DNA of 31,213 bases from Psammoneis japonica. Taxonomy: Eukaryota. Each line of letters begins with the position of its first letter. The first letter of the stretch is position 1. The stretch is from contig QPGO01000057.1 in the NCBI GenBank assembly GCA_008632985.1, forward strand, positions 372,001-403,213. Reading direction: 5' to 3'. The notes under the pieces are model-generated. The model saw only the letters and a list, made by a program, of their open reading frames with translations. It had not been told where the DNA came from and ran no database searches. This document shows positions 140-30,460 of the stretch, piece after piece. The translations under genes were made by a program, and so were the position numbers.

Positions 140-1927
140 TTAACGCACAGTTCCAACTCCTCCTGGGAAGTCTCCCAAAGCCATAATACCCTTAGAAGTC
201 CTACGAGTTGGTGGGGCTCCAAATACATCCCAAAAACGCAATGTTTCATCCGCTGCAGCAGAGACGACACAGCCACCATCAGGGCTTGGCTCTGTGTGTA
301 GTACACGTGATGTATGGCCTTTAAACTCTTGAAGCTTGGTCATCGTTGGGTATTTCCAAAGTATCAGTTGGTTTTCACTGAAACCATGGGACGAGCACAG
401 CTCCTGCTGATGCCTCGACCACAAAAGAGAGCATACCTGAGATCCAGTATCGACCGAGTTCAGCATTGTACCATTGCTCGTGTTCCAGAACTTGATGCTC
501 CGGTCAGCTGTGCCGCCCCCGCTGGCAAGTAACCCGCGACGGAATGGACACCAAGCAAGCGCTTTCACGGCAGCCTTGTGCTGCGTAAGAAGAATCCGAG
601 GCGACACCTCGGAACTAGCAATACTGTGCCGAGCGCGACCTGACAAAGCGTCACGTCGTCCGGATATTACCGCGTCCCAGATACAAAGATAATTTTCGTT
701 GCCACCACTGGCTAGCATCGTCCCTTCATCATTCCACTTCAGGCCGCATACCTCTTGCGTGTGCCCTTGGTATGTAGAAACAGCATGACCGGCGGATCGG
801 ATGTCATGTTGAAGAATCAAAGAGTCTCTGCCTCCTGATGTAAGCCACTGGTTGTTCCACGCCAAACTGCTGACTCTATTGGAATGACCATCCAATGTTC
901 GCACCTCTCGAATGGCTTGAGCGTCCCACAATTGAACAGCACTCGAGTTTGTTCCGACGGCAATGTACTTGGATTGACCATGCATGGTTGCCCATGATAC
1001 ACTTGTGACATAATCATTCGCTCCCCGCAAGGTAACCAAATGTTGAATGTCGCCTGTACCTGCATTCCACAGATAGACGCACTGCCCAAGCGCTACAGCA
1101 AGAATATTGTCTTTACTCCAGCTTAGCAGATTAATGTAGAAATCATCAACCAAATCGGGTGCGTCAAGAATTCTTGTTGGGGCACTTGGAATCTTACGAC
1201 GAGTTTTGTTTGCGGCAGATTCTAATCCACAGTCCAACGGATCTGAGTCACTTGAGAAAGCATTCCCGCCCTTGCATGATTTCGATGCAGATCGCTGCAA
1301 GACTCGTAGCTGATCGTGACAGTACGGATCCGACACAAGAGATGACGAGCTTCCTTCTCCTATTGAAGTGAAAGAGCCACTGTGAGTATTTCTATCCGAA
1401 AACGAAAGCATACGTGTGTCATTCTCTTGGTTGCGTGATATTTCATCGACTGGGATATCGAGTAGCGCCCCTTTCATCCGACGTCGAAACTCAGCTTGGA
1501 GGGCTGTCTCTGGGTCTGTTTGAGTCGGCGAAGATGAATTATTTTCACCCGAAAGTATTGAGTAATTAGGATATCTCTGTCTTTCCAGTGAAGATATGAC
1601 GCTGGTTCGGCAAAGGTCCATGTTCATGAGAGATCTGTTCGGGATGAATCGATCTGCTGAGGATCGAACGGTTGGCGTTGATCGTTTCCGAGGAGTAATG
1701 CTGGTGATGGTAGGTGAATGATATATGTTTGGTGCTTTTCTTCTCTTCCTACAAGAAGGCGTGTGTGGATCCCGTCTCATGAGGTGCTGAGGGCTGCTCC
1801 CTCTGACGGTGCCCGATCGTGGAAGAGACCTCATTAAACATGAACTTTTTCCCTGGTGCGTACTACTCCTTGGAGGTGTTTGAAGAAGAGTCCTCTTCGA
1901 GTGGTTGCGTGTTGGTGTTTTCATCAT
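140..1927 (-). CDS. CDC20: APC/C activator CDC20 (Fizzy family WD40 protein), intronless
   Basis: C-box DRFIPNR, a Mad2-binding-like RMLSF, the hallmark RKIPSAPTRILDAPDLVDDFYINLLSWS, WD40 repeats (GHTQEVCGLKW, HKAAVKALAWCP, LASGGGTADRSIKFWN, GSQVCSLLWS, SAAADETLRFW) and a C-terminal VR (IR-tail variant). First in-frame ATG is at 1927; the ORF track's 1999 start is not an ATG. Confidence 0.95.
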   Translation of the reverse strand: MMKTPTRNHSKRTLLQTPPRSSTHQGKSSCLMRSLPRSGTVRGSSPQHLMRRDPHTPSCRKRRKAPNIYHSPTITSITPRKRSTPTVRSSADRFIPNRSLMNMDLCRTSVISSLERQRYPNYSILSGENNSSSPTQTDPETALQAEFRRRMKGALLDIPVDEISRNQENDTRMLSFSDRNTHSGSFTSIGEGSSSSLVSDPYCHDQLRVLQRSASKSCKGGNAFSSDSDPLDCGLESAANKTRRKIPSAPTRILDAPDLVDDFYINLLSWSKDNILAVALGQCVYLWNAGTGDIQHLVTLRGANDYVTSVSWATMHGQSKYIAVGTNSSAVQLWDAQAIREVRTLDGHSNRVSSLAWNNQWLTSGGRDSLILQHDIRSAGHAVSTYQGHTQEVCGLKWNDEGTMLASGGNENYLCIWDAVISGRRDALSGRARHSIASSEVSPRILLTQHKAAVKALAWCPFRRGLLASGGGTADRSIKFWNTSNGTMLNSVDTGSQVCSLLWSRHQQELCSSHGFSENQLILWKYPTMTKLQEFKGHTSRVLHTEPSPDGGCVVSAAADETLRFWDVFGAPPTRRTSKGIMALGDFPGGVGTVR

Positions 1928-2689
1928 GGCGGATTGATTTGAAAGGTTGATGGGACACCGGTAGGTATGTTGTGAGGGAAAAATGCTGCTCGCTGACAAA
2001 AAATGTGAGCGAGCGCCATAAAAAAAACGGAAAAGAAAACCACAGAATCTTATGTATGCAACTTTTTATACAATAATAATATTTATTAGAAAAAATGTAT
2101 GTGAATATTAAAATTCCTCAACGGACGTCTCTGTCACACGCTCACAAAATGGCGATTTGGAGATTTCACTCACTTCTCGTCGCCATTGTGAAAGTAATCG
2201 CCATCGCCTTCACTCCATTCTATCTGGCATACCATTATCCACACTCACTCCTATACAACATTACATGTGATATGCCCTACTTCAGATAGTATCTTGCAGT
2301 CGGTGTGGTCCTCCCACAGACGGTCCTGTTGTCTCAGTTCCATGCACTTCACTCGTTCTGTCTCTTGGGAGGTAGGGTGGCACAGTGATGCCGTCAGCAT
2401 AAGACTCAAGAATGATTTGCTACGATGTTGAAACTTTGTCAGATGGAGACAAGGTATTGAAGATCACCCGACGGCGACTGACAATCCCAAATTCTCAGAA
2501 AGGTGTCAAAGAATCAGGTGATGTTCTCTCTAGCTAGAGAACGATCTATCGATTTCAATGTATTGCCAGGAAAAACTCCGTTGTTCTCGAATGCTGGGAT
2601 AAAGTGTCACTACAAGTTCAGCTACCGACAGTAGTCTCCCAAGTTTTTATCCAGACGTGCGGCGTAACGAGGAAATGGTGTTGTGGTAT

Positions 2690-5590: not shown

Positions 5591-6558
5591 TATGGAAACC
5601 GTTCAGTCACTGGCCGGCCGACGCGGAATTTGTACGGGAATGACCGAAGCGTCAGCTGAGGTCATCGGAACCGGTCACGAAGCCGGCAGGCTGAGTACCG
5701 GTTCTCCCGTACAAATTCCACGGAGGCCGGAGCGGCCGAACCTGAGGGTGCGCTGAGGCGGAGGTCCCCGACGCCGAAGCGCACCCGAAGGTGAGGACGC
5801 GTCCACGTGACTGACCGGTTTCCATAGGAACCTATCAGTTAGAGGACTGACGCAACACAGAGACCAACAAAATACATTAATATGGATCTCTATTGAGTGA
5901 TCCTGGTGATGTATTTTTGTTGTGGGACCGCTGGAAGACGCCATGGTCGAAGGTGAGGCCTCTCGATCGCGGTGTCGTTTCGTGGGTTTGCTTTTTTATC
6001 TATATTATTAATACATATAGATGTATATTTATTTTAATTAGGCGGTTCCGTTTATATGTTTATTCATTTATATATGCTTTTTCACAGTCAGTATCGGTTT
6101 GTGGCATTCAAACACGATTGAACTCTGCGACGTCACATACCAGAGACCTACACAACATTGTCGTAGCCAGCATGTGCAGGAACCACCGTTGGGTCGAGAG
6201 CACTTTTTGAATTTCAATACCAGACAACATGTAGATTTCTACGAGCCAGAAATGACCCTCCAGTGCCATATCATGTGCATCGCTCACTCCGGGAACGCGA
6301 CGGCCGGTTCCCGGAACGCTGGTATATGCCTACGTGGCTCTACGTCGGGAATCGGCCGAATTTGTCAAAATCGCCTGCGCTGGTTCCGACGGTTGGAATG
6401 AGACAAAATTCAAATATTGGTTCCCAACCGTGTACCAAGTTCCCACGTAGCTTCTACACAACCGCCAAAATAGTCTCGGTCATAATGACTCGAGTTTCCA
6501 TACACAGTCTACACAGCGCTACGAAGAACAATGTCAGTCCGATAACTGATAGGTTCCT
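5591..6558 (+). other. Large branched fold-back element (structured ssDNA or RNA) with tandem G.A mismatches; function unknown
   Basis: Stems: 5591-5610/5807-5826 (19/20 bp), 5614-5639/5705-5730, hairpin ears 5640-5665 and 5668-5704, arm 5732-5800, and long-range stem 5826-5851/6533-6558. Eight internal mismatches are tandem GA/GA. Confidence refers to the pairing, not to a function. Confidence 0.85.
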
Positions 6559-6759: not shown

Positions 6760-7500
6760 TGTGAGTTGAAAGGAATGCATTAGACTGGCATTTTGTTGGA
6801 AGCCTCACAATGGATCATTGCTCGATCAAACGGCCAAGGTCAGAGGCGGCCACGACAATGATGAAGTCAAATTGGTTGACAAGCATTTGTGGCAGCAGGA
6901 AATGCAAACAATGACAGGGTCAAACTGGCACTGCTGGACAGAAAAAAAGAGTTCAAGCTCATGACTGTGCTGTTTGTCACAAAGGGCTCGGTTCAATTCG
7001 GAGTTTCTTTTGCAAGGCGAGTCTCTTTTCCTCTTGTGTTGTCACATGTGCAACCAAAAAGGAGGGGTGCACCATTGTCATGCACCAAACAGTGCTTCGG
7101 CAGCTGAGTTGTGCAGTGTCTGGTGCAACAATTTCTTTTAGAAGGAGAGTTTTTCCTTGTTGTCAGATGTGTGTGACAAAAGGAGAGAAGCACCATGATT
7201 GTCATGCAAACAGTGGATCAGCCATCTGAGTTGTGTGGTGTCTGATGCAACAAAAGGCAAAAGAGACAGAAGCAGCCAAAACTCAAAAAAACATGCAGCA
7301 GGCACCTGAGTTAAAGCTCTTCCAAAAACAAGAGGCTGCACCACAAAACAAAACATTGCAAATCTGTGACCATTGGAAAAATTGGCTGCTGTCAAGCTGA
7401 GTGATGACTTTGGCAATGTCAGATTTGTGACCAAAAATGAGTTGGTGGCAAAACACAATTGTTCAGAATTTAAATGGTGGTGACCACATCAGTTGATTTT
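6760..7500. mobile_element. TpA-depleted, partly CpG-depleted degenerate repeat block 1
   Basis: Only a few TpA, in TTAG/TTAA contexts (6780, 7138, 7311, 7471); TG/CA-rich; flanks have normal composition. Confidence 0.6.
6825..7033 (+). mobile_element. Possible CryptonF-type tyrosine recombinase relic
   Basis: Reads DQTAKVRGGHDNDEVKLVDKHLWQQ...RARFNSEFLLQGESLFL. Reverting CAC/CAT to TAC/TAT and CAA to CGA gives GGYDNDEVKLVDKYLW...LRGESLF, resembling the recalled GY...YFW...LRGES catalytic-Arg region of Crypton/Ndc10-like YRs. Short and degenerate. Confidence 0.35.
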
Positions 7501-7592
7501 TGAAAAACCGTCACACCTGTGTGGAGTGTGCATCGCAGGTGTAAAAATTTCATTTCTTGTTCTTGTTGATCTTGGCGGGCGGGCGGGCGGCG

Positions 7593-7918
7593 CGGCACCA
7601 GTGCTCACATCAGGAGCACAGGCGCTTGTACAGCATCGCATTGTGTCAAAACACGGCGCAGCGCGCAGTTGGGCGCAGCACCAGTGCTCACATCAGGAGC
7701 ACAGGCCATCATGCATTCAGATTTATAATGTCCTGAAGATTGCAAAAGACAGTGCCATTACCCAACCTTTTCAGAATTGATTAAAAATATAAAAGCCATC
7801 ATAGATTCAAGAATTATATTTGCTTGTATACGTATTTTGTGTCAAAACAGACACCGCGCAGTTGGGAGCGCAGCACCAGTGCTCACATTAGGAGCACAGG
7901 CGCTTGCACAGCATCGCA
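7593..7918 (+). repeat. Three copies of a ~30-80 bp unit containing a GTGCTC-N7-GAGCAC hairpin
   Basis: GCACCAGTGCTCACAT(C/T)AGGAGCACAGG at ~7595, ~7678 and ~7873; copies also share TTGTGTCAAAACA and GCGCTTG(T/C)ACAGCATCGCA. Confidence 0.85.
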
Positions 7919-7989
7919 GTGAGATCTTTGGCAAACCATACACTGGTTTTAGAGGTAGTTGAGCCTTTGTGTAAACAAGTCTGCCCACT

Positions 7990-9720: not shown

Positions 9721-12700
9721 GATTTTCACTGCACATCATCCTGTAGCATTCTGTGCCTTCCCTCCAAACTGCGCGTTTACTTTGAACAGCGCATTTCGTG
9801 GGGAGGCATTGCTCTTTCCTTACTGTACGTGCGACAGGCTTCTGTATAATGCTTTGTGGACGCCATACTTCTCGTCCTACTTTATTTATTTGAATGTGCT
9901 TACACTCGGCGGCGTCATGACCGCCTCCCTTATGTGTGTGTGTGGGGGGGGGGGTTCGAAACCGTTGGTGTTTTGCTTGCGGCATTTCGAGTCGCCAGAA
10001 ATCTGAAATGGACGTGAAAACTACAAGAAATACGAGGGAACAGCACAATATAAAAGGTATGTTCAACGCTGTCTAAATGCGTACAGCTTTCAAGTTGTGC
10101 GCCGGTCACTCATTTTCTTGCTAATCTAATAATGAGCTGCCACTTGTTTTGCAGGACCAGTTGCTGCTGTTAGCCGCGACTGCTGGAGAAGGCTGATTGC
10201 GCTAGGAACCTGGCTTCTTTCTTCCGTCTTGCTGCGAGTCGTCTGCGCCGTGGATCAGAAGAGTGCATTATTTGAGATTCCCACTGCGTAGCAGAAACCG
10301 CCATGCTTCGTTTTAGGGAAAGACTCTAGAGGCAACCAAGCAACTCTAGAAATCTAGTGTACTCGGTGGAATCAGAGCAAGAAGATCAAACATCAAGATC
10401 CCGATAGTGCTGCTGCTCAGCTACAGACGACAAGCTTTACAAGTTTCTACGCAGGTCAGAAGTTGCCACCAGCATCTCACACGCAACATCAGAATCCCCA
10501 TGTTACATATTCCCATCGATTGAGATCTTGATTCAGTGACAAAGTTGTCTCTTTCTAACGTCAAGTATCACACTTTGACTGACTGTTCTGATGTTGGCTC
10601 ATTTTCACCTTCGCTGTACCGGCGTGAGACAGCCGGTGCTTTCTCCGCTTTGTCAAGTGTCGCACTCATGGAAAGTCAAGAGGCAAGCCGATTTGACATA
10701 AGGCTGTTGAAAACGGTGTTTGAATGCTGTGGGTGTTCGACAATCTTCGTGTGACCCTTGGTGGAGAGCTCCACGTTTAAGTTGGCTCATGTGAGATGGT
10801 ACACATCATTGAGTTCGGAACTAAGCAAACCGTTCGCACCAGTATGATATTGCGCAAACAGAGAACACACGACGCTAGACAAACACCATTGCTGTGTCGT
10901 GATTGTTGTCTCAAGGGTCGATAGAACTAGTTCAATTTTTTTTTCAGGCGTTGTCATGCTGACGGCCAAAAAATCTCTCCAACTTAGCCCTACCTGTACT
11001 CTCTACCGTAGAGGACTTAGGCCCTGTGCCAGATAACTTGCTTCAAATCTAGAGTAGTACGCGGCCCTAATACCAGCGGGATAGCTATAGCACCAGTAGT
11101 ACTGGCTTTATAGCCCGAAGCTGTTTCCTGTTTGGGTTGGAGGCGGAAACTTGCTGGTGATGAATTTGATTGCTCGACTGACAGAGGACAGAAAAGAGCA
11201 TGCCGGGCGACAAACTGAATCAGGGTATAGATGCGCAACCGTCCGGTGCAATTCACACCAACGTGGCAGTGCACTTGACCAAACCGCCACTAGAGATCGT
11301 CGTCTTCGTATTCCAAACTTTATCGCTGTCCATCGTGTCATGAAACACTGACTCCTTTTTGCTTTGTCCCCCCTTCCCATTGCTGCTGTTGGCCATCATA
11401 ATGAGCCCCTTGTGTCTCTGGCCTCCTTCAACTCTTCCTTTGTTTTGCCACACTTGCACACACTTTTTGCAACTGTTCTCCAAAACCAGCAGGTTGGGTG
11501 CCTCATCGTTCTTGCAGCTGCCAACTTGTCCAAGCAACATCTTGATTTGAGCCAATGCTTCCACATCATCTTTCCCACTGCTGTTGGCAGGAACAAGAGT
11601 GGGGTGAAAGAGTTTTGGGATGGGATGTTGTCCCTCCCTCTGGCACTTCCTCCAGAGATTGCATCTTGGCATTGTTTTCTGCTTGTGTGTTTGTCTTCTC
11701 ATGATCTGTGTGCTCTGCACACTTGCAAAACACCAAGCAGCATGTGCCGGCAGCCTTCCAGCACCCCAATTGTTGCACACTCCATTTTGATGTGCAGTGC
11801 TTGTGGAAAGATTGTTTTTCAGTTCCCCATTGGCATTGTTTTTGTTTGCCATTGCACCTTGCCCTTTGACATTTCACAAATTTTTGCCCTCTTTTTTCTT
11901 GGGGCACGTTGAGTTTGGACAGTGCTGTCTTTGCAACCCTGCCACAAAGCACAAAGGCCTTGTCATTCAGAAACTTGCGCTGTCTGAACAGGACATTCTT
12001 GCAGCAATTCTGCAACACAATCTTGTCCCTGTTGTTTGTTTTGTCACTGTGTTGATTCTTTCTTGCTGGTGTGTCGCGCGCCCATTTTTGCGTGAAAATG
12101 AAAATTGCATGATGTGTTCATTGCAACAACTGCATGCACCACAAATGTTGTTTTCATGACCAAAGCTCAAACAAACAAGAAAAAGCAAAACAAAAACAGC
12201 CATGGCTTTCGTGGTGCATGACGGTCTCCTTTTTTCAATCTCACGGACAACTGGGGGGCATTGTGAGGACCTCAGCATTGGACACAGTCAACACACAAAC
12301 TGAGCATGATGAAAAAACAACTGCTGCAGTCTGCGACACACTTTTGCATTTAACTGCGTGGCAATGGCAGCTTTCAGAAGCAACTGCCAGCCTCATTTTG
12401 CTCCAGATTTAATGCCAAGAACAGCTTTTTTTTTTCTCTTGTCATGCAAATCATTTCCCAGCTGTGTGGGCTGGCACAAGACTTTCAGAGTGATTGACAT
12501 CAAGAAAGCAGCAGGAAAGAGTCCAGAATTGGTGCCGCTGCGGTGCTGGTGTTCTTCTTGATTTGTCTGTTGCACAATTTGTTGCTCAACAAAGATGTTG
12601 GTGAGGCTGTTGAATTGCAAGTGTCAAAATGTGTGCACAAAAAATGCCAGGCAATGATGCCAGATGACCTGGTTTGCACAAAAGAGTGTCCGGTGTCCGC

Positions 12701-15700
12701 ACATGTTGCACACAAGCACATCAATGTGAGCACACACTGCTCAAGGAAGTGATGAGCTCTTGTCTTGATCAGCAACAATGAGCCCAGATAATCTTCAGAA
12801 ACAACAACGTGGGTGCATGCACAAGACCTTTCTGCATGTGTCCATGTCTGAACATTTGAGTGTCAACACTTTTTTGCCAGAACAAATCTGAAAACATGGC
12901 CCATGACCAAATGAGAGCATGTTGGAGTTTGGCACTCACAACTGCCAATGTCAAAGGCAAGCTTTTTCCATGACTCAACAAGTCCACAGAAATGATTGAG
13001 AACCCTGTGAAAAGCCACAAAGAAGGAGCGAGAATGGCAAAAAGCCAAGCCTGCAACAGACCTGGTTGAGCAATGACAAGATGCAAGATGCTGTCTGTGA
13101 GAATGAAGTGCAGGCACAAAGCTCATGCCACAACTCCAGCAGCAAGTCTCTCACCTCTGTCAGGTGACAAGCCCAGCGGTGCTCTTCTTCCCGCTGTTCC
13201 ATGAAAAAGAAGAGCTGCAAAGATGTCTGCATGATTGCCAAATGGTGCTGCACTCCCCTTGTCATCAGATGGTGACTTCACAGAGGACAAGCATGCCAAG
13301 TTGAATGTGCAATCAAATCCCAATCAAGCAGCTGTCCAAGAGGTGCAACATTCCTGAATGCATTGCTGCTTGCCATCTGTGCAACCCATGATGTGACAAA
13401 TTGCCATGCAGCCTCTGTTGAGAAACACCACACAAGATGACACATCAGCATCAATTTTGGCCCTGCAGTGCCTGACACCCCACATGCCAACAACAATGCA
13501 ACCCACCAGTGTGGCAGCCAGGCATGTTGGGTGCCAGCCACATGTGCCACATCTTGGAGAGGGCCAACCAAATGGGTTCAGGAAATGGCATTGACAGGCG
13601 CGCAACTGCCAGGATTGCACCTGTGATTTGCAATGTTTTGTTCCAGACCAGCTTGTGCTGCAGTTCAAAAAAGCCCAGATGAAGCTTCCCCAGCTCTGTC
13701 ACATTTTGCCAAATCACAAGACAAGTCTGGCATAAATCCAACAGAGGTGCATCTTGTGTGAGCAACATCACAACAAAACAGAGAGGTGGGCATGAGAGGA
13801 AGAGTCAAATGCCGCCACCACACATTGCCAAATCCTTGACTTCCACTGTTTCTCAGCCCCGGCCATTGCACCTGTCACGTGGCACATGACAATTGCATCC
13901 GATGCACCTCAAATTCAAATCAAGCCAAAGGTGTGTGAATGAAAAAAGGCCAGATCTGTCCCAACTGTTGGAAGAGGAATCAAAGCTGGGGTCTTGACTC
14001 TCCCAGCAACTCCATTTGTTTGGCTCTCAACCTTCTTAAATGACATGAAGCAAAACAAAGATTTCCAACTTTTTGTTCTTGTCAATGAAACAAGCTTTGG
14101 CTGGGGACACATTGGTCTTTGTGCCTCTGATTTGCATCCCTTCATTCATTCTTTCACAATCCAAATGGCAATCTTGACTTTCCTGGTGACTCCTTGGTGG
14201 GCTTGGCTTTCAAGAAGTCAAAACAGAGATTTCCAACTTGGTCCCATGAATGGTCCTTGCAACCCATTGTTTGTTCTCTGTCAGCATTGCAGCTCTGGAC
14301 TCCTGGCTTGGATCAGGGCTGGCACTCAGTTGGATCAGGGCTGCTTGACACATTGTGCTGCTCACACCACTCACAACTGCACAACAGCGCATGACTCTTG
14401 AAACACATGGTGAAGGAAATTCAGACAATGCATTTGATGCATTTGAGTGGTCCCACAAGACATTTGACAAAGCAGCTGAGCTCCTCCTGGAAGAGCAGAG
14501 GGGCAACACATTTTTCATTTCAAATTTGGCAGTTGTGTTGCATCAATCGCTGCTTTCAGCAATGTGGAAAGAAACAATCATCAAGAGGTGCGCCACTGAC
14601 AGCTCATCCAATCTCATCTTTTGACCCCAAAAGGCCATGGAGATGTGGTGGGTTGGGTTGCCAAGAGCCTTTGCATGGAGTTGAAGATCCCTGGCATCAT
14701 TTTCCCAAAGCAACTCATCAGCTGCAGCAGCATTGGTGTGTGAGCCAACATGCTTTGAAGCCTCTGTCACTTTTTCAACATTGACATGAAATGTGGTGAC
14801 AAAAGTTTCTTTGCACTTGCTCATTGTGGCACAGTGATGCATGTGCAATTGGAAAAAAGCTTGGCTCATGCTTTGAACCAGTGATGGCTTGGCACTCACA
14901 TGAGGTGGGGGGACACTGCACATGACATTTCTGGATTTTGCATGTTGTCAGAAGCACGTGAACTCCCCATTTTAAGTTTGAGTTGCCATTTTGGAAAAGA
15001 GCAAGATTGTGGAGGTCCAGCGGCCAGAACAAATCTTTGAAGTGGGTTTGCATTGATGGACTTTAATCTTTTCAACTGGACTCACATTTTTTGTGCTTGG
15101 CTTCATCCCCTCCCAAACACTGAAGCTCCTGCTGCAGATGCCTGCACATCTGCTCTTACATTTGCACTTGATTTGTGTCAATTTTTTTTGTTTCTTTGAC
15201 CACCTTGGCAACAGTTTGTAATTTCGCCTTTTTGTTGCAATGGGTGGCTTTCCTCATGCCATCCACTGTGACCATCAGAGCCTCTGCTGCACTGCAGGTT
15301 TTCTTGCAGAGCCACAGAATGCCTGGCTTCTGTGGCCACATTTGCAAAGAGCCTTGGCAGCTGTCACCCGATGTTGTGCATCTGCTCACAGCCTTTTTTG
15401 GGTCATTGCAAGCACATGCCAGTGCCAAGATTTGGACCAAGGGAACAAACAAAGCTTTCACAGCTGCGCAAAATGAGACACAGCTGAGCACACTGTCTGG
15501 TGCACAAAGCATTTGAGGATCAGGGCAAGCTTTGCAGCAGGCTTGTTGGCATGGACTTTCCTGTTGTCTCCAACAGCCAAACAGCCCTTCAAGCAACCCA
15601 GGCCCTGGTGATGGTGCAACTTTGGAGGTGTGGCTGGACAATGCCAAATGTGCTGCAATGGTCAGGGGCCATCAAACAAATGTCTGGCCTTGTTGAACTG

Positions 15701-16740
15701 CTCAGACTTGTCTGCAGTGCCAGCATGCCATTCTGGCCCTCCAGAGCTGACCCATGCTTTTTTCTGGTGTGGATGCAGAGCACACTTTCTGCAAGCTCAA
15801 GCAGACCCTTCCATGCTGTTGTCTTGACACTCAAGGATCATCTGGCACAAGCAGCCATCAAAAAAGGCAGGTCTCCAAGAGCTTCTCTCTCATGCACACA
15901 CCCACTGCTGTCTCCAAAATGACCCACAAGGTTGGATCATCACCACGCACTTGAGGCATTGCTGCTGTGTGTCAACACCATGGAGGGGGTTGCACTTTCA
16001 CCTGGCCCTGGACACACTGCTGGGAGCTGGGCTTTTGTGTTTTTTGGTGCTTGGGGTGCTGCTGGAAGCAGGGCTTGCAGTGTGATGCATCACTTGGAGC
16101 TGGCCACTGTGCTTTCTTGGTGACAAAAGACAGTCAGAACCAGGCTTGATCTCCAGGCAGGCTGCAGCCAGGTGTCATTCTTGGAGCTGTGCTGGAGCCT
16201 TGCAGGTGCTGATGGGAGGAGCTGGGCTTGCACTTGGTTCATCACTTCTTGGCACATTGCTGGCAGCAGGACTCATGCTTGGCACATCTTGCTGCTCCTC
16301 AGTGGTGCTGCTGGGATGAAGCCACAGGTGGAAGGCAGCAAACATCAAATTGCCAGAGGCTCACTCACTGCTGTGCTCAATGCAGTGCACCTGCACATCA
16401 AAGTTGAAAGTCTGTCTGGTTGATCATTGATCACGTGGCACAGCAGGGCTGCCACATCCCACTGTTCCTGACAGCTGCTGTTGGCTCTAGCTAGACTCTA
16501 GAGAGACACTGCTTGGAGTGCATGGCTGAATTTTGTTTGCTGCTTTCTTGGTTGTGCACAACACATTCCCAAGGTGAAGTGATGCACCAGTCATTCACCC
16601 ACACTCACACAAGTGACCGCTCATTGTCCATGACTGTCATCTCTGCAAGCAGGCCAGACTTTACACACCATGAAAGTGGCAAACACTGTTTTTTGTTCTG
16701 CCACTCTGTTCTCTCACTGCTCTGCCAGCACCGCACAAAT

Positions 16741-16960
16741 TTTAGCTTGCACTGTCCTCTTGGCAAAAGCCAGGATGCTGTTGCACGTCTCTGCCTGGCA
16801 CTCCCAGAGAATGTTAAAAAAAACAAACAAATGTTGTGCACTTCCATGCTGTTTTCTCAAAACTCCAGCCCTGCACAGCTTCTCAGCTTGCACTGTCCTC
16901 TTGGCAAAATGCCATGATGCAATCATGTGTCTCAACTGGGCACTCCCATGGGAGAACATT
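16741..16960 (+). repeat. Diverged direct duplication (~75 bp, copies at ~16741 and ~16882)
   Basis: AGCTTGCACTGTCCTCTTGGCAAAA is shared; downstream differences are mostly TG/CA/CG swaps. Confidence 0.8.
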
Positions 16961-17938
16961 TTGACCTTTTGCTGGTTGTTGCAGTTGGCAATCTGGTGCT
17001 CCAGTTTCACAATCAGTGTGTTCTCTGTGCTGTTTGTCTTCTGCTCTGGATGGAACCAAGGTTTGTTGCTGAGCCAGATTGCACAGCTCATCCTGAAAGG
17101 ACCTGTGATTGCAGAACCTGGCATTGAGCATTGAACACTTGCATGGGCAGCCATGCATCTTTGGATGCCACGCCCATTGCCAAATTTAGCTGCCACTGGT
17201 TGCCACAAGGATCATCAAATGGAGGTGCATTTGAAAAGAATTCAATGGCCTGTTTTGATTCAAGCACATTGAACCCCCAATCACCCCATGGACTGGAACA
17301 CAAGAAATTGAAGTTGCGCCACAACTTCTCTTGAGCAATGTGTTCGTTCATGAGCTTCCATTCAGATGGCAATGTTGAGACAAGCTTTCTGACATTTTGT
17401 GGATTTTGACTTGCAATCAAAACACCAACAGGTGACAATCCACCCTGAGCCATTGCCACGACGCAACATCCAGAGTTGGTTTGTTGCAGCAATGACTTGC
17501 AGCCTTGAACATGTCCCAAAGGAAAAGACAGGCTCTTGGTGTCTGGATCCCATGAGTTGGCACACCAGACTCTGCCCCACACCCAGTCAGATCAGGAGCG
17601 CACATTTCATGTCCAGGCTCTTGCAACACAAGCTTGTCCCAAAATGGAGTGTGCCCCACATGCCAAAACCTTCTTTCATCATCAACTGGTCTTGAGTGGC
17701 AGTTCTCCATGAAAGAGGAGGTGGTGCTTGTGGGGCCCACCAACGTTGGAGTTGATGTTCGCTGCTGCAAAATTCCTTGCAACATGTTTTAGCATGGGGG
17801 CGAGGCGCTTGCCGTGCCGGTCGCCAGTTGAACATGATCAAAAATGTGCTCAACAGCAGCATCTCTTTGAGTTGTTTGGGATGCCTTTCCAAAAGCAAGC
17901 CCTGCCAGAGAGAGCAATGTGATGAAAAACACGAGCAA

Positions 17939-18024
17939 GCGGACCGGCTTCATTGCTGTTGTTTTTGAACTTGTGGTGGTTGCGGACCGGCTTCGTTGCC
18001 ATTGTTTTTGAACTTGTGGTGGTT
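17939..18024 (+). repeat. 43-bp tandem duplication
   Basis: GCGGACCGGCTTCATTGCTGTTGTTTTTGAACTTGTGGTGGTT followed by GCGGACCGGCTTCGTTGCCATTGTTTTTGAACTTGTGGTGGTT. Confidence 0.9.
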
Positions 18025-18330
18025 GCATCTCAAGTTCCAGCAGTGCACATTCTGTGTGCGATTCCACATGGCTCTTGAGGGGAACCCGGAATGTTGTTGT
18101 CAAAGAAGAAGTCTCTCTCTCGAACTCTGTGACATTTTCTCTGCAAATAATGTAGCAACATGCGCCGCAACTCCCAACTTTTGAGGCGAGGCGCATCAGG
18201 AAGAATCCACCATTGTCGTGTTGTGAAGCCGCGCTTGATCGCGCTAGGCCAAAAAACTCGCGGCGCGCGGCCGACGGGCCGACGGCAATGGCATCGCGCA
18301 AACAAAAAAAAAATCTCAAAAACAGTCAAG

Positions 18331-18932
18331 ATGTCGTCGGGGCAGTCGATGTTGCAATCACGTCGATCTCTCTACGTGGGAGGTCTTGAGGATACCGTCA
18401 CTGTGTCGACACTGCGTGCTGCAATGATTCCGTTTGGTCCTATCAAGTCGATTGAAATCGTACGTACGTGTGAATGAGCATGTTTTGACAGTTTTTGAGA
18501 TACCTCCGCTCAAGTCCTCACATTCGTTTTTCAACTCCTCTTCGTTTAGCCAATGGATTACACAAAAGGAAGTCATAAAGGATTTGGATTCGTTGAGTAT
18601 GAGGAACCAGAGGATGCTTCTGAAGCAATCTTCAATATGGACGGAGCTGAGCTAATGGGCAAAACACTCAGCGTCAGTCTAGCCCAAGCCAACCAAATCA
18701 AGCTGGGCAGCAACAAGGCTGTCTGGAGTACCGACGAATGTAAGTACTAAGAAGGATGCTCATATCTACTGTCGATTTGAGAGTCATTCTCATCATGCGT
18801 GTCGCTATCACTCCATCACATATCGTAGGGTTCCAACAACAAGCTGGTTTGCAAGGCAACGAACAAGAAGCGGCACAAAAAGCCGCAGCAGATGATGCAT
18901 CCGCTCTTCAGAAGGACACTCCTTTGCCGTAA
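18331..18932 (+). CDS. RRM protein similar to the N-terminal RRM of cyclophilin E/Cyp33 (no PPIase domain); exons 18331-18459, 18550-18739, 18829-18932
   Basis: RNP2 LYVGGL, RNP1 KGFGFVEY, AIFNMDGAELMGKTL and KAVWSTDEW. Two GT-AG introns (GTACGT..TAG; GTAAGT..TAG) join the exons in frame. Confidence 0.9.
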
Positions 18933-19498
18933 GTCTCGTACAATTGCACATAGGGGTGTATAAATGAAGAATATCATTAGCACTGATGGAGAGCTGTGAA
19001 ATGGTTCTGCCTAGCAACGCCGCTGGCAGGTTGTTCCAATGCCCATAACCGACCATACGCTACATGCGATAGTGTAGGTAAAGCAATCGACCAAGGCGTC
19101 CCATTCACGGTGGCTTGAGTTATTGCTCTATTGTATCGTAGTAAGCCTTTCTCCGTCTGGCGCGATTCCTTTTCAGACGTTCGTCCCCCCCCCCCCCCTC
19201 CGAGATATATCAAGGCAAAGAAACACGAGCTGGACGCAAAGCTGTTACTTGTATCGAGCCTTGATATCTAATCGTCCTTGTTGCATCCAGGCTCGATGCA
19301 TGTGACAGCTTTACGTGCTGCTCGTGCTTCCTGGCCTTGAGATAGCCGTATAGCATCTTCAACATGAACCAGCTCCATGCAAATGTGCACCTTCCCCTCG
19401 TTGAATTTCTCCCTTCGTCTGTTCAAATAGAAATCAAAATCTGAAAAAGGGTGCGTTGTTGTTATAACTCAGGAAGATGGAATCAAACCGTCAGCTTT

Positions 19499-23027: not shown

Positions 23028-23923
23028 CAAGTGGTTGTTGCGGCACAAGGTTTGGTGCTTGGCAGACCGCTTAGCGTGAGTGTTGTGTATCACGCACTCT
23101 GAAGAGTATTGAAGCGGGGCCGTTGTGCACTGCAAGGATTACCACACTATAGCTGGAGTTGAATGCCATTACTGGTTGGCTAGAAAAGAATGCGCGGGGC
23201 AAACTAGGCTACTGTGAAAACCAGAGCTGACGTGACTGTCGCATGTGGACGTATCAAAAATCGAACGGAAAGAAATGAGCAGAGCAAACATATGCAACGA
23301 CATCGCAAGCGCTACGACCTCCCTCGTAGCATTGACGTACGTACGGAATGAATAACACACCAATAAAGACTGCTATGCTGTACTTTTAGAGTCTTTCTAA
23401 TCTTTTGGAATAGTTTCAAAGCATTCTTTGAAACACGCCAATATCAAAAGTTGATAGAAATCGGTCGCGTAGGATAGCATTGCCTCAAGAGCGCCATCAG
23501 AAGATGGAGCTCAAGCTTTTTCCTAGTTTCGGAGTGGAAATCCATCCAAAAAAAAAGAAAAAGGGGGGACGTACTACGGAGACGACAAGTAAACTTGCGA
23601 GTCAACCGCGTGCTAAATCAACACTCCCTACGAGTGAAGACTTACCGTACCACGTCACTGGTACGACGGAACCCCAAACCCCGCGTTCCGTCAACGGTAT
23701 GATCTGCTTGGCGAGCTTTTGCTGCCTCGCAGACGAACGCTGCTGTCTGTTTCAACAGCCGTGACCTGACAGGTCAAGCGAACAGGCAACTTCCTACGGT
23801 CAAAGACACAGGAGTAACATGGACTCCAGGCCGGAGACACGCATTCGATTTGCCCCGACCTCCGGACTTAACTGGCAACACCTACGCCGCCGATTGAGAC
23901 AACACGCCATCAAGCAAAATGAT

Positions 23924-24200
23924 TTGCGGAATACCAAACAAGAGCGAGCAATCTATTCCAGAGGAAGGGGGAGCCATCCTCGGCGATCGCGGCATTCGTT
24001 GCTTGGCAAACAACAAACACATCGTGCGAGACGACGAGTTGAAAAAAGAGAGACAACACTTCGTGCAAGCACAATGAGTTGTGGAACACCAAACAAGAGC
24101 TAGCTCTCTATTATCCGCAAGAAGGGCGAGCCATCCTGGGCGATCGCGGCAATCGTTGCTTGGCGAACAACAACACATCGTGCGAGACGACGAGTTGTGA
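23924..24200 (+). repeat. Tandem duplication, period ~155 bp
   Basis: TTGCGGAATACCAAACAAGAGC...GAGCCATCCT.GGCGATCGCGGCA.TCGTTGCTTGGC...CACATCGTGCGAGACGACGAGTTG at 23924 and 24079. Confidence 0.85.
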
Positions 24201-27079
24201 GCGAAAAACGAGCGCGAAAGAAAAAGCTGTGGAGAGATTTTGGTTTGTGTCGTGACCGTTGCAAATTTTCTCAATCACTATCATTTTTGTGTATCCAAGT
24301 AGAACAAGTACGATGATGTCGTATGTAGAACATTCGTTAGAATTTGGTACTTTCCAAACTATTACTAATTCTTACGTACGCTCTACGGTAACGGTCCAAA
24401 ACCTGCCGACGACGAGCTCCGCGGAATTTCGAAATTCTCCAGTGTCTTGCTGCCTGGCAAGGGTTGCTGGTGCAAGTGCTGTGCTGTGCCAAGTCTTGAA
24501 CAAACTGTTGGCACGCAAAGAGAGCCAGCTGCGCCAGCAGCAGAAGGAGTGCACAATTTTGCCAATGTGCTAGCTGAAAGCAGGACCATGGAAAACAATG
24601 TAAAACTTTCAGGAACTCAGTCATCCAATCCTTTTGTGTGAGACATGCTTTTCATTGTTGCTCCAGAGAGGCATGATTTGAGGGCCTGCTCCTGCCATGT
24701 TCATGGGAAGCCTGTGAAATTCTTGCTCCCAATGAATGCTCCCCATTCTCTTTTGTCCATGTTTCAACAACAGGCCTGACTTCTGAGAAGCAACACTTCC
24801 TGCGTGACTGCAATGCAAACCCAGAGTGGCGTGTGGTCCATCACTTCTCTTTCATCAATGTTGCCTCTCTGTTTTGGCAACTTGATGTCTGAAATGGCTG
24901 CAGCTTGCAGCAACCCTGAATTCTCAAGCTTGTGAAGCCACCAGAGCACTCAGCACCTGCTTGATCCCTGTGGCCACTCCTGGCACCACAACACATCATC
25001 GCTGGCCTGCTGCATTTTGACTTGGAAGCAACAGCACACTTCATCTTGCTGCTGTCCACACTCAAGCAGTCAAAGTCCCCACCACACCATGCACCACTCC
25101 AAGTGCAAATGCACTGAGAATCGACCACACATCAGAGGCCGCAACACAGTGGTGTTCACTTCCTTTGTCTTGTTTGCATCATTCAATGGTGTGTTGGCAT
25201 CTCTTTTGTTTTTGCACTTTGCATGCAAAGGTTGCAGTCATGTTTCAATTTGTTGTTGCCTTTTTGTGTGTGTTGTTGTCACCTTTTGTTTTGATTTAAT
25301 TTTGTCAATGCATCCCAATGTGTCTTGCATTTGAATTTGGCACATTTTCTTTTGATGACTTTGGTGCATGTGTTTTGAAACGTCATCTTTGACAGTTGTT
25401 TTCAACAGCTCCACCCCGTTCATGCACCACCACAGTGGCTGGCATTTCTTCTATGCCCAAGTTGTCCCAATGAGTGCTTGGCTCATCATTTTCACCTGCA
25501 CTCACCAGAATTTCAGTCCATGGCTCTCTGCCCGGTTTTTGGTGCATTTTCTACATGCGCAACATTCCACCCATTTTTCACGACAGCACATCCTCTCCAC
25601 AAAATGCATTTGACAAGAGCGTGCACTGTTGTGATTCTCATGTGCATTCTACGTGAATCAGCAACTGACTGTTGGCCATGGCTGTCAATGATGCTTGGCC
25701 ATTTTTTGCAGCTTTTGCAATTGTTGCAAGCACATTGCCACTCCAGTTGTCTGTGGCCACTTTGGCAAGGTGGCTTTCTTGCTTGGCAAGGAAGGCACTG
25801 GCTCTCAAGGTGATCCACTTGTGGTGGCTATGCACTGCACACAAACTGGGGCTGATTCTTCCTCCAGCTCAAGCCATGTGAGCACTCCTCATTTCCCTGA
25901 AGCACCCACACATCTCCTTGGTGTGCTGATGACTCAGAAGCAGCAGCAGGAAAATTTTCAAGCAATTCAGAAATTTTTTCTCACCCTGTGCAACATCAGA
26001 CCCAACCACAGCAGTTGCCATTCTGTTGACAACTCCAAGAACACTCCAGAGAGTTGTTCTTCCAGAGTGCATTCTGGGGCAGAAAAACAGACACATGGTG
26101 GCTTGCACCATGCTTGAAGAACAAGCACAAATGAAAGTGGAACAAGTGGAACAAATCACAGAAAGCACAAACCATGAGATCAAATTTTACACTGCAATTT
26201 TGGGATTTTCCAAAGGAGTTCTCAATGGCCTGAAGTGTTTGTGCTGCTCCTGCAGAGCAAAGGCCTTTCAGAGACCAATTCCCACGTGCACTTCACTGCA
26301 ACAGTGCAAAAGCGCCAGGCATCACTGACCACAAGGCATGACAATGACAAAGCCCCAGATTGTGATCATCACAGCAGTCAATGGGATGCACCGGCCTGTT
26401 GGGGTTGTTGCTTGTCAAAGAAAAATCAACAACAAGGGGGCACCTGTCATTTCTCTTTGAGCTGGGTGCCTTGATGGCTGCACCAGGTGCAGACGTGCCA
26501 ACAATGTTGGCAATGCTTGTTGGGGATTGAGCAATGCTGAAAGGAACTTTTCTGTTTCTGTCCAACCAGCCACCCACAATCATGCCAACAATGCTGACAA
26601 CTCATCTCCAACATGGCCACCCAGTCACTCCATGTCCTTCTTGCAGCACAAGTGGCCCAACAATGTGCTGTCGGCAAGTGCTCCTGAAGAGACTTTGTTG
26701 TCTCTTTTGGAGCAAGATTTGTGGAATGAAATGACAGCAAAGACTTGACAATTGAAGCGGACGGCCGCCACCCAAGCACATGTTTGATTGGCTGAAGGGC
26801 ACATGCAATGTCTGAAGGCACCTCTCAAGAAGGCACAATGATGTTGGGATGGTGGACCCAGACAAACCCTTTCAGTTTTCAGAAAAAGGCCAAACCACAG
26901 CATGCAGCACACACAATGCATGGAATTCTGCATCAACACTTTGCCATGTTGCAAATCAAAATCATGTGTTGAAAGCACAGTGAAAAATGTGAGGGGCAGA
27001 GAATGTCCACATGAGCTCTAGATTGTCAACATTGTGCCAAGAAAGAAATGACTGATGAGGACAATGAGCTCACATCAAA

Positions 27080-29899: not shown

Positions 29900-30460
29900 G
29901 TGCTGACTTTCTCTTCGGAACTCATCGTTGAACAATCAAAATTGAGCTGCCACTGGAATTTATGGCAAAGAGTTGGCGGCGGTGACATCTCAACATCCCT
30001 TGGGCCGATTTTCGCGATTCTTGTTTCATTGCCAATGGAAATTGTACAAGGAATCCAAGAGGCTTGGTTTTGTTGTGCAAAATTCCATTCTGTGCAGATG
30101 GATTTGTTGGGTGCCGTGCGCACAGAAATGATGCTTCAATTGGAAGGGGCGCTCCAGCGATGTTGTGGATTGAACAAGGAAGAATGAAGCCCCAGACACG
30201 CACTGCATGTGACAAGAACATTGAATGTGAATGTTGAACATGGCACGGGGTTTTTTACGTCAGTTGATCGTGTCGGGTTGCCTTGATTTGACAGAACATT
30301 CCACGGCACCAACCGGTTTGACACGCAGCTGGAAATCGGCTTCCTCCAGTGTTCCAACCAATTTGACCTTGCTTGCATGGGCAAGCTGTTGTCGCCTGGT
30401 TCGGGCATTCCATGCGCCTTTAGACCCATCCACCACGACATCGTTGGGGGTTGTTTGAAT
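29900..30460 (-). mobile_element. Degenerate stramenopile CryptonS-like tyrosine-recombinase transposon ORF (N-terminal region)
   Basis: WMGLKAHGMPEPGDNSLPMQARSNWLEHWRKPISSCVSNRLVPWNVLSNQGNPTRSTDVK (30256-30435) matches the recalled pattern W..LKAYG.P.P...P...RS.SL.Y.KKAIS.YMPNR...W......GNPTRS..VN; frameshifted downstream. Confidence 0.55.

Follow-up and report, generated by a model that had tools for sequence, protein, structure and literature searches.

Domains of a diatom contig that have lost both TpA and CpG in favour of TpG and CpA

The region examined here, referred to as the window, is a single stretch of 31,213 bp (about 31 kb) from one contig of the diatom Psammoneis japonica. It contains three domains, D1, D2 and D3 (Table 1), in which TpA and CpG are both strongly depleted and TpG and CpA are enriched. 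The pattern suggests that, beside methylation-linked loss of CG, TA is removed by a process not yet described. We propose, with a probability of roughly 0.7, that two context-specific transition processes acted on both strands and converged on TpG and CpA, after the DNA had arrived at its present position. One would be C:G→T:A at CpG, a consequence of CpG methylation, confined to the domain cores and sparing CpG flanked by G or C. The other would be A:T→G:C at TpA, acting across entire domains including margins that keep CpG, strongest at R-TA-Y, weakest at Y-TA-R (TTAA, CTAG), and about 40-fold or more above background. As part of the same explanation, the domains would be non-functional DNA, presumably silenced, that includes sequence of repeat origin as well as one or more truncated duplicates of a host α/β-hydrolase gene.

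Table 1. Positions of the domains, genes and duplicated segments within the window
Feature	Position	Strand	Description
Domain D2	6781-7724		TA-depleted block of about 0.94 kb; CG-depleted core 6854-7508, CG-retaining margin 7509-7724
Domain D1 core	11340-17744		TA and CG both depleted
Domain D1 margin	17745-18330		TA-depleted, CpG kept; directly upstream of RRM gene start codon
Domain D3 core	24392-28940		TA and CG both depleted
Domain D3 margin	28941-30540		TA-depleted; CpG near normal
D3 internal duplication	26969-27515 and 27732-28244 (span 26969-28244)	+	Internal test of post-duplication mutation
α/β-hydrolase pseudogene	16880-17644	-	Host gene, hypermutated and 5'-truncated, within D1
RRM-domain gene	exons 18331-18459, 18553-18738	+	Expressed; right-hand limit of D1
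CDC20/Fizzy gene	140-2065	-	Flank with normal composition; PF24807, E 2e-121

The depletion is real and far beyond chance. The three domains together (6781-7724, 11340-18370 and 24392-30540; 14.1 kb) contain 53 TpA against about 623 expected, and their cores 88 CpG against about 638. Counts (with observed/expected ratio, O/E) in the pooled domains (14,124 bp) are TA 53 (0.06), CG 232 (0.28), TG 1567 (1.78) and CA 1596 (1.81), compared to TA 754 (0.63), CG 942 (0.99), TG 1309 (1.21) and CA 1238 (1.18) in the pooled flanks (17,089 bp); over all 31,213 bp the totals are 808 TA and 1174 CG. In the pooled cores, O/E is 0.04 for TA and 0.13 for CG. The G+C content is hardly altered (domains 48.3%, flanks 47.1%), and the strands are balanced, with 792 TG and 782 CA in D1. 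A preliminary description of this DNA drew attention to 15241-16486 (1246 bp), and its tally is exact, with no TpA and four CpG and neighbours rich in both. Given the 4.4% frequency of TA in the flanks, a stretch of this length would be free of TA with a probability of about 10^-24; the longest run without TA is 1269 bp (15219-16488). Microsatellites do not account for the domains, as TRF detects a single array (43-bp x2) across the window.

The left edges of the domains are sharp to within tens of bp. At D1 this is true for both dinucleotides, the final TA being at 11321 and the final CG at 11334, and at D3 dense TA stops at 24389 and dense CG at 24430. To the right the two diverge: D1 is TA-poor from 11340 to about 18330-18370 but CG-poor to about 17744, and D3 is TA-poor over 24392-30540 but CG-poor from 24431 to about 28940. 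In D2, about 41 TA would be expected over 6782-7723 and about 36 CG over 6854-7508, but the counts are 5 and 4. The preliminary description gave D1 as 11340-18150, with the left limit right and the right limit about 200 bp too short; the further occurrences that it placed at about 6760-7500 and about 24440-30530 are D2 and D3, TA-poor over 6782-7723 and 24392-30540.

The CG-poor zone is always nested inside the TA-poor zone. In the D1 margin, the only TA are those at 17790, 18148, 18153 and 18245, but from 17801 onwards CG is frequent. The D1 and D3 margins together (2.2 kb) have 15 TA against 96 expected, and 114 CG against 120. TpA loss is therefore independent of CpG loss, because margins without TA still keep CG. 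The D1 margin is probably the promoter of the RRM gene. A spliced transcript-like contig begins near 18324; X2 contig 14 omits 18460-18549, and a profile search aligns positions 1-30 and 34-69 of RRM_1 to the two exons.

The process acts on both strands and depends on extended sequence context. The TA that remains in the domains is Y-TA-R in 27 of 54 cases and R-TA-Y in 2 of 54, as against 117 and 257 of the 754 flank TA (chi-square p = 6e-13 compared to flank TA, and p = 2e-6 compared to the TG+CA parents within the domains). Residual core CpG is likewise enriched in sites with G or C on both sides (34/90, against 176/942). Because TA and CG are near saturation while other divergence from an expressed paralogue (discussed below) is about 5-6%, and because there are 53 residual TA against 3163 TG+CA, the implied mutation rate at TpA is at least about 40-60 times background.

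These observations bear on the proposal that no dedicated enzyme is needed, and that A:T→G:C at TpA is a by-product of chromatin-linked repair or polymerase bias, arising either from error-prone filling of patches once T:G mismatches have been processed (Pol-eta-like, WA→WG) or from a lack of mismatch repair. The common left edges of TA and CG loss, and the nesting of the latter inside the former, would fit such a process, as would the weaker TA depletion in the margins that keep CpG (O/E 0.11, against 0.04 in cores), which is like one chromatin gradient. However, the margins have lost 81 of 96 TA but only 6 of 120 CpG, so that CpG deamination is not needed for TA loss, and the contrast between R-TA-Y and Y-TA-R, together with a rate at least 40-fold above background, resembles site recognition more than a general loss of fidelity. 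Pol eta, as in phase 2 of somatic hypermutation, shares with this DNA an A→G change with a 5' T preference, and was among the candidates of the preliminary description. It also targets AA, whereas AA is not depleted here (O/E 1.27 in cores and 1.37 in margins, against 1.13 in flanks). The Pol eta signature was rejected as a poor fit on these grounds, and we consider a by-product of repair in general to be unlikely.

The depletion arose by mutation of known polarity, which acted after duplication. This follows from the mass balance, from discordant CA/TG sites in duplicated DNA, from the pseudogene, and from an expressed paralogue in which TA and CG persist. In the cores, the combined deficit of TA and CG is 1026 and the excess of TG and CA is 950; in the margins the deficits are 81 TA and 6 CG, and the excess is 93 (TG +56, CA +38). 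When TA and CG of the flanks are converted in silico, the remaining 12 dinucleotides shift as they do in the domains (r = 0.76 for cores and 0.61 for margins). The two copies of the D3 internal duplication align with 346 identical columns, 122 transitions and 32 transversions. Adjacent double transitions number 45, and 35 of these are sites with CA in one copy and TG in the other; such sites supply 70 of the 122 transitions, and none occurs in a duplicate that lies outside the domains. At the edge of D2, a duplicate has CA in the inside copy (7589-7706) where the outside copy (7837-7921) has TA.

The pseudogene in D1 is a copy of a host gene whose coding capacity has been lost. It consists of three frame segments (17644-17564, 17558-17127 and 17125-16880), is interrupted by two frameshifts and one in-frame TGA, and lacks Tyr codons. 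It matches 16 proteins at E≤1e-3 (best 1.5e-8), and Abhydrolase_6 is present in 7 of 12 homologues scanned. In tblastn all 16 homologues match the pseudogene region, with a summed E of 1e-40 for residues 181-424 of P0121. The pseudogene differs at 47 of the 130 columns that are conserved in at least 8 of the 16 homologues. Reversal of TG/CA to CG would restore 12 of the 47, for example R→W at a column with Arg in 16/16 and R→Q twice, and reversal to TA would restore 6, namely Y→C at columns with Tyr in 15/16 and 8/16, GTA→GCA, TTA→TCA, and CTA→CCA twice. Former Arg codons are now Gln, Trp or His, and conserved Tyr is now Cys. The residue counts agree with this, the pseudogene having 0 Tyr (2-7 in the homologues), 6 Arg (8-20), 14 Cys (3-10), 7 His (0-4) and 22 Gln (3-19). 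With homologues this distant, the share of available TA-type reversals (6 of 60) does not significantly exceed that of other transitions (9 of 144), and TpA loss is claimed from the comparison because Tyr codons are wholly absent and two conserved Tyr have become Cys.

A closer comparison is given by the expressed paralogue, X2 contig 12, which has 99 differences from the window over 730 nt. Among the differences listed (a sample of 40 of the 343 between reads and window), the paralogue has TA (4) or CG (6) opposite TG/CA of the window in 10 of 17. The polarised comparisons thus do show TA→TG/CA, and the relative is not equally TA-poor. Together with the mass balance, the 35 CA/TG sites and the 16 homologues, this bears out the suggestion in the preliminary description that TpA is converted to TpG/CpA (A:T→G:C) beside the conversion of CpG. 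It also argues against an inherited or selected composition, in which the source DNA avoided TA and CG, or selection (against a nuclease or a TA-targeting transposon, for example) removed them. The pattern is common to three mutually unrelated sequences, a host gene within D1 has lost conserved Tyr and Arg codons, duplicated segments have resolved the same sites differently, and the open reading frames (ORFs) in the domains are no longer than in dinucleotide shuffles, which leaves no function for selection. We regard such an origin as highly improbable.

On one strand, the paralogue has TA opposite both TG and CA of the window within 60 bp (16680-16734), and on the coding strand of the pseudogene Y→C occurs together with V→A, L→P and L→S. 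Since both outcomes are found on one strand, the DNA is mutated in situ, as a duplex. ADAR/ADAT hyperediting also changes A to G with a 5' U preference, but such editing is single-stranded, and it was rejected on the basis of these outcomes and of the balance of TG and CA in D1. The same observations weigh against editing before integration, in which retro-copies would have been hyper-edited as RNA or cDNA by ADAT/ADAR-like A-to-I enzymes and cytidine deaminases, and inserted already free of TA. This would explain the sharp left edges, and the copy of the hydrolase gene lacks its 5' part and runs collinear with an mRNA-like contig, as in a processed pseudogene; TadA/ADAT enzymes, moreover, act on A after U. 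However, editing of a single strand would leave one outcome alone, the TA-free state spans unrelated neighbouring sequence and a host promoter, and a poly(A) remnant was looked for at the 3' end of the pseudogene and not seen. In addition, 9 of the 23 listed differences between the window and contigs about 99.5% identical to it, assembled from the public run X1, are CG/TA against TG/CA, one double difference (CA against TG) being among the nine, which suggests continuing change in place. Editing before integration is thus improbable.

The X1 contigs also address the reliability of the sequence. X1 comes from one sample in one study. The assembly may have been made from it, so that the two are not fully independent. 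Its short-word (k-mer) contigs cover 30 of 30 bins of 10800-18800 at a depth of about 60, with the same depth in D1 as in the flank, and 39 of 168 are at least 99% alike to the window. The reads therefore reproduce D1 rather than disagree with it. Modified bases can bias some basecallers, and this, with the possible common source of X1 and the assembly, would favour systematic miscalls at such bases or another fault of sequencing or assembly. Against this, the amino-acid changes and frameshifts of the pseudogene are internally coherent, and the flanks, from the same data, are normal. We see hardly any chance that the depletion is an artefact.

The preliminary account linked the domains with methylated transposable elements, and this identification is not supported. 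A Pfam search of six frames of D1 and D3 gave no family at E≤0.01, and a profile search of 80 of the 175 ORFs of at least 55 aa gave noise alone (best E 0.006). LTR- or TIR-like long-range repeats are absent, even in purine/pyrimidine space, and neither protein domains nor terminal repeats thus support a transposable element relic. The sole identifiable content is the host-gene pseudogene. Targeting of the process to repeats may be suggested: in parts of D1, which are multi-copy, the X1 depth adds up to as much as about 6 times that of the flank, but over the pseudogene it is about 1 times, and the expressed paralogue is unmutated.

Decay of CpG through methylation is the ordinary, known part of the pattern. 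Methylation in diatoms is described as mainly at CpG (PMC5124317), and the core CpG depletion, with its matching gain of TpG and CpA, is as expected for 5mC deamination (diatom DNMT5-type), as are the better survival of CpG with G/C neighbours and its retention in a promoter-like margin by an expressed gene. TpA, however, is lost more fully and further out than CpG, and 5mC decay cannot remove it, as had been pointed out in the preliminary description.

Fungal RIP shows a similar near-saturating, sharply bounded set of transitions, which affects both strands of DNA that is duplicated or without function, and RID/DNMT4-type enzymes are described as having relatives in many diatoms, with DNMT4 in 31 of 60 diatom species (PMC9998398). 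However, RIP makes only C:G→T:A changes and so creates TpA, while A:T→G:C changes here destroy it, including at former TA sites in the pseudogene. Both classical indices are inverted (TpA/ApT is 0.067 in domains and 0.67 in flanks; (CpA+TpG)/(ApC+GpT) is 2.01 and 1.19), and the paralogue of the mutated copy has been spared. RIP was therefore rejected as the cause. A literature search for TpA→TpG/CpA at least 40-fold above background found no matching process.

We infer that the domains are heterochromatic or methylated, and that the TpA step is driven by an enzyme. Its chemistry might, tentatively and by analogy, involve a modified thymine at TpA, one that pairs wrongly with G. TET/JBP-type oxidation to 5hmU/5fU, which are mutagenic, would yield such a base. 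Protist thymine modifications include kinetoplastid base J and dinoflagellate 5hmU. Dinoflagellate TET/JBP homologues are described as making 5hmU, enriched on repeats, and older work as finding that T was replaced preferentially where it stood in TA and TC (PMC11572971), while TET2 variants are described as able to switch substrate from 5mC to T (PMC11804724). A modification of the dinoflagellate type, known from a related protist lineage and aimed at repeats and transposons with a preference for TpA, could thus plausibly set TpA apart chemically in silent DNA, although mutational extinction of TpA does not figure in the parts of the dinoflagellate account drawn on here (PMC11572971). The contexts that survive in the domains weigh against thymine modification. 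Kinetoplastid base J sits in Y-TA-R, the very context that is retained, and we know of no 5hmU/J-type base or TET/JBP enzyme in diatoms. Deamination of adenine at TpA would be our second guess. Mutation of TpA may, speculatively, serve in genome defence.

Other eukaryotic metagenome contigs surrounding CDC20 genes, 487 kb in total, contain no comparable domain, though the set is gene-centred and few of its members are diatom. The best named matches to the CDC20/Fizzy gene of the window are from diatoms, at 53-69% identity.

Three domains of the window, here called D1, D2 and D3, lack TpA almost completely and are enriched in TpG and CpA. In a sliding 500-bp scan, the observed/expected ratio (O/E) of TpA falls from about 0.6 to 0.00–0.1 in three blocks, and over most of the length of these blocks that of CpG falls from about 1.0 to 0.03–0.2. 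The O/E of TpG and that of CpA each rise from about 1.2 to 1.7–2.6. The preliminary description had reported no TpA and about four CpG in 15241–16486, and this count is exact (0 TA and 4 CG in 1246 bp); given the flank TA rate, zero TA in this interval has a chance of about 10^-24. The longest run without TA in the window is 1269 bp. The domains do not consist of simple repeats. TRF detects a single tandem repeat in the window, a 43-bp unit in two copies that match at 93%; it lies in D1, in the margin that retains CpG (17939–18026). In what follows, the part depleted in both TA and CG is called the core, and the TA-depleted part that keeps its CpG is called the margin.

Dinucleotide composition of domains and flanks: counts, with O/E in parentheses
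Region	Length (bp)	TA	CG	TG	CA	G+C (%)
Domains pooled	14,124	53 (0.06)	232 (0.28)	1567 (1.78)	1596 (1.81)	48.3
Flanks pooled	17,089	754 (0.63)	942 (0.99)	1309 (1.21)	1238 (1.18)	47.1
Cores	11,573	35 (0.04)	88 (0.13)			
D1 + D3 margins	2,186	15 (0.11)	114 (0.81)	(1.48)	(1.60)	

The window was compared with short-word contigs from two public sequencing runs, X1 and X2. X1 contains 81% of the sampled words from 10800–18800, and its contigs cover all 30 bins of this region at a depth of about 60. Since X1 contigs reproduce the D1 sequence (39 of 168 are at least 99% alike to the window, the long pieces having 2–9 differences each), the TA- and CG-free state exists in reads; X1 and the assembly may, though, come from one and the same sample. 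A further 94 X1 contigs match at 85–95% only, among them paralogues of 11334–12134, 12669–12935 and 17742–18008, and the summed X1 depth reaches about 6 times that of the flank in parts of D1, so that parts of D1 are multi-copy. Transitions outnumber transversions among the read-versus-window differences, by 160 to 80 in X1 and 92 to 17 in X2.

The limits of the domains were read from the position of each TA and CG. In all three domains the CG-poor stretch falls within the TA-poor stretch. On the left, D1 and D3 begin abruptly, within tens of bases, for TA and CG alike. The main CpG-retaining margins are on the right side, and there are also left margins in D2 (72 bp) and D3 (40 bp). A 206-nt X2 contig matches the window at 11298–11342, ending exactly at the left edge of D1, and continues with about 150 nt that contain TA and CG and are absent from the window; it may represent an empty-site allele, a different junction or a further copy of the flank. 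In the left flank of D1 (10831–11299), one X1 contig lacks 32, 259 and 72 bp of the window at three places and has 7 bp inserted, which suggests a second haplotype or strain.

Coordinates of domains, margins, duplications and pseudogene in the window
Feature	Position	Strand	Remark
D2, TA-poor	6782–7723		
D2, CG-poor	6854–7508		
D2, right margin	7509–7724		CpG-retaining
D1, TA-poor	11340 to ca. 18330–18370		
D1, CG-poor	11340 to ca. 17744		
D1, right margin	17745–18330		CpG-retaining
D3, TA-poor	24392–30540		
D3, CG-poor	24431 to ca. 28940		
D3, right margin	28941–30540		CpG-retaining
D3 internal duplication	26969–27515 / 27732–28244		
Control tandem duplication	23896–24041 / 24050–24197		just left of D3
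Duplicate pair at D2 right edge	7589–7706 / 7837–7921		one copy inside, one outside
Alpha/beta-hydrolase pseudogene	17644–17564, 17558–17127, 17125–16880	-	tblastn, 16/16 homologues

The depletion arose by mutation, in place. Relative to the frequencies in the flanks, taken as the initial state, the cores are short of 1026 TA + CG and have an excess of 950 TG + CA; the margins are short of 81 TA and 6 CG and have an excess of 93 TG + CA (TG +56, CA +38). Random conversion in silico of TA and CG to TG or CA in flank sequence reproduces the shifts in the 12 other dinucleotides (r = 0.76 for the cores and 0.61 for the margins).

The internal duplication of D3 was aligned with a scoring that is lenient to transitions and blind to their type, giving 346 identical columns, 122 transitions and 32 transversions. 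Of 45 adjacent double transitions, 35 have CA in one copy and TG in the other. Each such site would derive from a single ancestral TA or CG that was resolved differently in the two copies. These 35 sites in 500 columns exceed what CpG alone would give at any plausible CpG density. The two copies are in different reading frames, and the duplicated unit is thus non-coding. The control duplication just left of D3 has a normal composition and 86% identity; it contains no CA/TG discordant site, its differences being single-step CpG changes. The pair that spans the right edge of D2 is identical at 59 of 63 aligned bases, and has CA in the inside copy where the outside copy has TA.

A full HMMER search with one read-through frame of 14726–18325 (X at stops) had 16 protein hits with E ≤ 1e-3 (lowest E, 1.5e-8), and Abhydrolase_6 is present in 7 of the 12 homologues scanned. 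Residues 181–424 of one protein, P0121, match this part of D1 with a summed E of 1e-40 (tblastn). These alignments identify in D1 a pseudogene of a host alpha/beta-hydrolase. It covers the C-terminal two-thirds of the protein, is truncated at the 5' end and is broken into three frame segments, which imply two frameshifts. In a set of 5.8 billion proteins, the closest homologues of its segment B are two proteins with 42–43% identity. A short tandem duplication (16698–16806 / 16841–16948) takes in the trailer of the pseudogene as well as its 3' end, and also has CA/TG and CG/TG discordant sites.

The pseudogene keeps 83 of the 130 columns that are the same in at least 8 of the 16 homologues, and differs at 47. 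The consensus is restored at 12 of these by TG/CA to CG (from 52 available nonsynonymous changes), at 6 by TG/CA to TA (from 60), at 9 by another single transition (from 144) and at 9 by a single transversion (from 663); the remaining 11 require two or more changes. The CG-type changes include Arg to Trp at a column with Arg in 16/16, Arg to Gln twice, and Arg to His. The TA-type changes are Tyr to Cys at columns with Tyr in 15/16 and 8/16, GTA to GCA, TTA to TCA, and CTA to CCA twice; in this comparison with distant homologues, the TA class has no significant excess over other transitions. The pseudogene has no Tyr (2–7 in homologues) and 6 Arg (8–20), compared with 14 Cys (3–10), 7 His (0–4) and 22 Gln (3–19).

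A closer relative is provided by X2. This run looks like RNA, because its contigs omit intron-sized pieces of the RRM gene, which flanks D1 on the right. An X2 contig matches 16640–17625 at about 87%; the 730 nt compared contain 99 differences and 12 gaps, and the match ends where the hydrolase protein homology ends. The best interpretation is that this contig represents mRNA from the functional paralogue. Of the 17 differences listed for this contig, in a sample of 40 of the 343 read-versus-window differences, there are 10 at which the paralogue has TA (4) or CG (6) and the window TG/CA. The outcomes TG and CA are both seen against the paralogue within 16680–16734.

The process that removes TpA acts on both strands. 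TG and CA are symmetric (792 and 782 in D1, 664 and 682 in D3), and in the comparisons with the paralogue and within the pseudogene the two outcomes are found side by side on a single strand. It is independent of the loss of CpG, since the margins lack so many TA and so few CG. It is also fast: TA and CG are near saturation at a point where other divergence from the paralogue is about 5–6%, and at steady state the pooled counts of TA and of TG + CA imply that TA is lost at least about 40–60 times faster than it is recreated. The TA that remain have a distinct context. Of 54 residual TA, 27 are Y-TA-R (TTAA 12, CTAG 8) and 2 are R-TA-Y, compared with 117 and 257 of the 754 flank TA (chi-square test: p = 6e-13 relative to TA of the flanks, p = 2e-6 relative to the contexts of TG/CA within the domains). 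Residual core CpG have G/C on both sides in 34 of 90 cases, compared with 176 of 942 in the flanks. The rule for survival thus differs between TA and CpG, which makes the two losses separate biochemical steps. In the X1 contigs with about 99.5% identity to the window, there are 20 differing positions in 4455 bp of D1 and none in 901 bp of the right flank; of the 23 X1 differences in the sample of 40, 9 are of the CG/TA versus TG/CA type, one of them a double difference of CA versus TG. From this there is a weak indication that the TpA process is still ongoing.

The right margin of D1 contains 4 TA in about 590 bp and is dense in CpG. It is most likely a working promoter, because D1 stops at the start codon of the RRM-domain gene (ATG at 18331; exons 18331–18459 and 18553–18738, + strand), for which a spliced, transcript-like contig starts near 18324. 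With its promoter and 5' region there, this expressed gene would have a promoter that works without a TATA-like element, within hypermutated DNA.

The domains themselves have no coding capacity, since their longest ORFs (186 and 198 aa) are matched by 87% and 62% of dinucleotide shuffles. A six-frame Pfam scan of D1 and D3 (X at stops) found no families, and 80 of the 175 ORFs with at least 55 aa, scanned against Pfam, returned only noise. There are no tRNA genes or Rfam matches, and a long-range repeat search, including purine/pyrimidine k-mers, found no terminal repeats in the domains. The three domains are not similar to each other by blastn or purine/pyrimidine k-mers, transition-tolerant Smith-Waterman scores are no better than those of shuffles, and BLASTP of two margin ORFs (E 0.04) indicates no relation between domains. 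Three-base periodicity gave no usable signal, even for the CDC20 gene in the flank. A transposable-element identity of the domains is thus not supported, since a reverse transcriptase or integrase would still show with about 10% of bases changed. What the domains do contain is multi-copy sequence and a gene fragment.

With regard to mechanism, the loss of CpG fits methylation-linked deamination, and PMC5124317 describes diatom methylation as chiefly at CpG. The loss of TpA was ascribed in the preliminary description to a second, repeat-targeted mutator, with Pol eta-like WA to WG error among the candidates; the Pol eta-like candidate is a poor fit, AA being without depletion. RIP is excluded by its direction (RIP indices of the domains 0.067 and 2.01); RID-related DNMT4 genes of unknown function occur in many diatoms, according to PMC9998398. 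Single-strand editing of RNA or cDNA is excluded by the presence of both outcomes on one strand. What remains is a TpA-directed change in duplex DNA, either of A (by deamination) or of T (modified so that it pairs with G). We favour the thymine route, because it would account for the nesting and has a precedent in a related lineage. The nesting of CpG loss within TpA loss would follow because T always carries a 5-methyl group, and C only where it is methylated. For dinoflagellates, PMC11572971 reports that TET/JBP homologues produce 5hmU, enriched on repeats and transposons, and that earlier work saw T replaced preferentially in TA and TC. According to PMC11804724, variants of TET2 can take T instead of 5mC as substrate, which happens most readily where the DNA is methylated.

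The most far-reaching reading, to which we give a probability of a little under one in five, is that diatoms have a second, CpG-independent mark of silent chromatin on TpA, whose simplest writer would be one TET/JBP-type oxidase directed at 5-methylpyrimidines. Such an oxidase would target the T of TpA throughout a domain, and the 5mC of CpG only at methylated cytosines, and both palindromic Y-R steps would then be hypermutable toward TpG/CpA. It would account for CpG loss always being nested in TpA loss, for the retention of unmethylated promoter CpG in TA-free DNA, and for the common end state of TpG/CpA. 5-Formyluracil favours T to C changes, and the context of base J is Y-TA-R. If this reading is true, the domains would preserve, like fossils, the traces of an epigenetic base not described before, and would be the mirror image of RIP.

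Two kinds of context-specific hypermutation of silenced DNA are known to us, one the decay of methyl-CpG and the other fungal RIP, and each changes cytosine to thymine. The present case belongs to this class of hypermutation, with a new specificity and a direction opposite to that of RIP. A search of full-text literature, with most subscription journals outside its scope, found no domain-restricted hypermutation by TpA loss in diatoms or elsewhere. The signature was also absent from 79 gene-centred eukaryotic metagenome loci around CDC20 relatives (487 kb, few of them diatom), in which a TA O/E of 0.1 or less occurs only in windows of at least 70% G+C and never with CpG loss; repeats seldom assemble in metagenomes. 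A regional A:T to G:C change at TpA that keeps pace with methyl-CpG decay or exceeds it would represent a new kind of mutational chemistry. If real, it would mean that in the silent chromatin of diatoms TpA either bears a chemical mark or is specifically recognised, and a TA O/E near zero at normal G+C would be a signature by which such chromatin could be mapped in any assembly. Age estimates for the repeats and pseudogenes of these genomes would be affected, a host gene copy could be erased by the TpA/CpG process within about 5% background divergence, and a promoter could function in nearly TA-less DNA.

Outside the domains, a flanking ORF encodes CDC20/Fizzy, whose best named relatives are from diatoms, with 53–69% identity. 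DNA of normal composition also contains two imperfect palindromes, at 19206–19344 and 5614–5730, which are self-matching inverted repeats with 72–73% identity.
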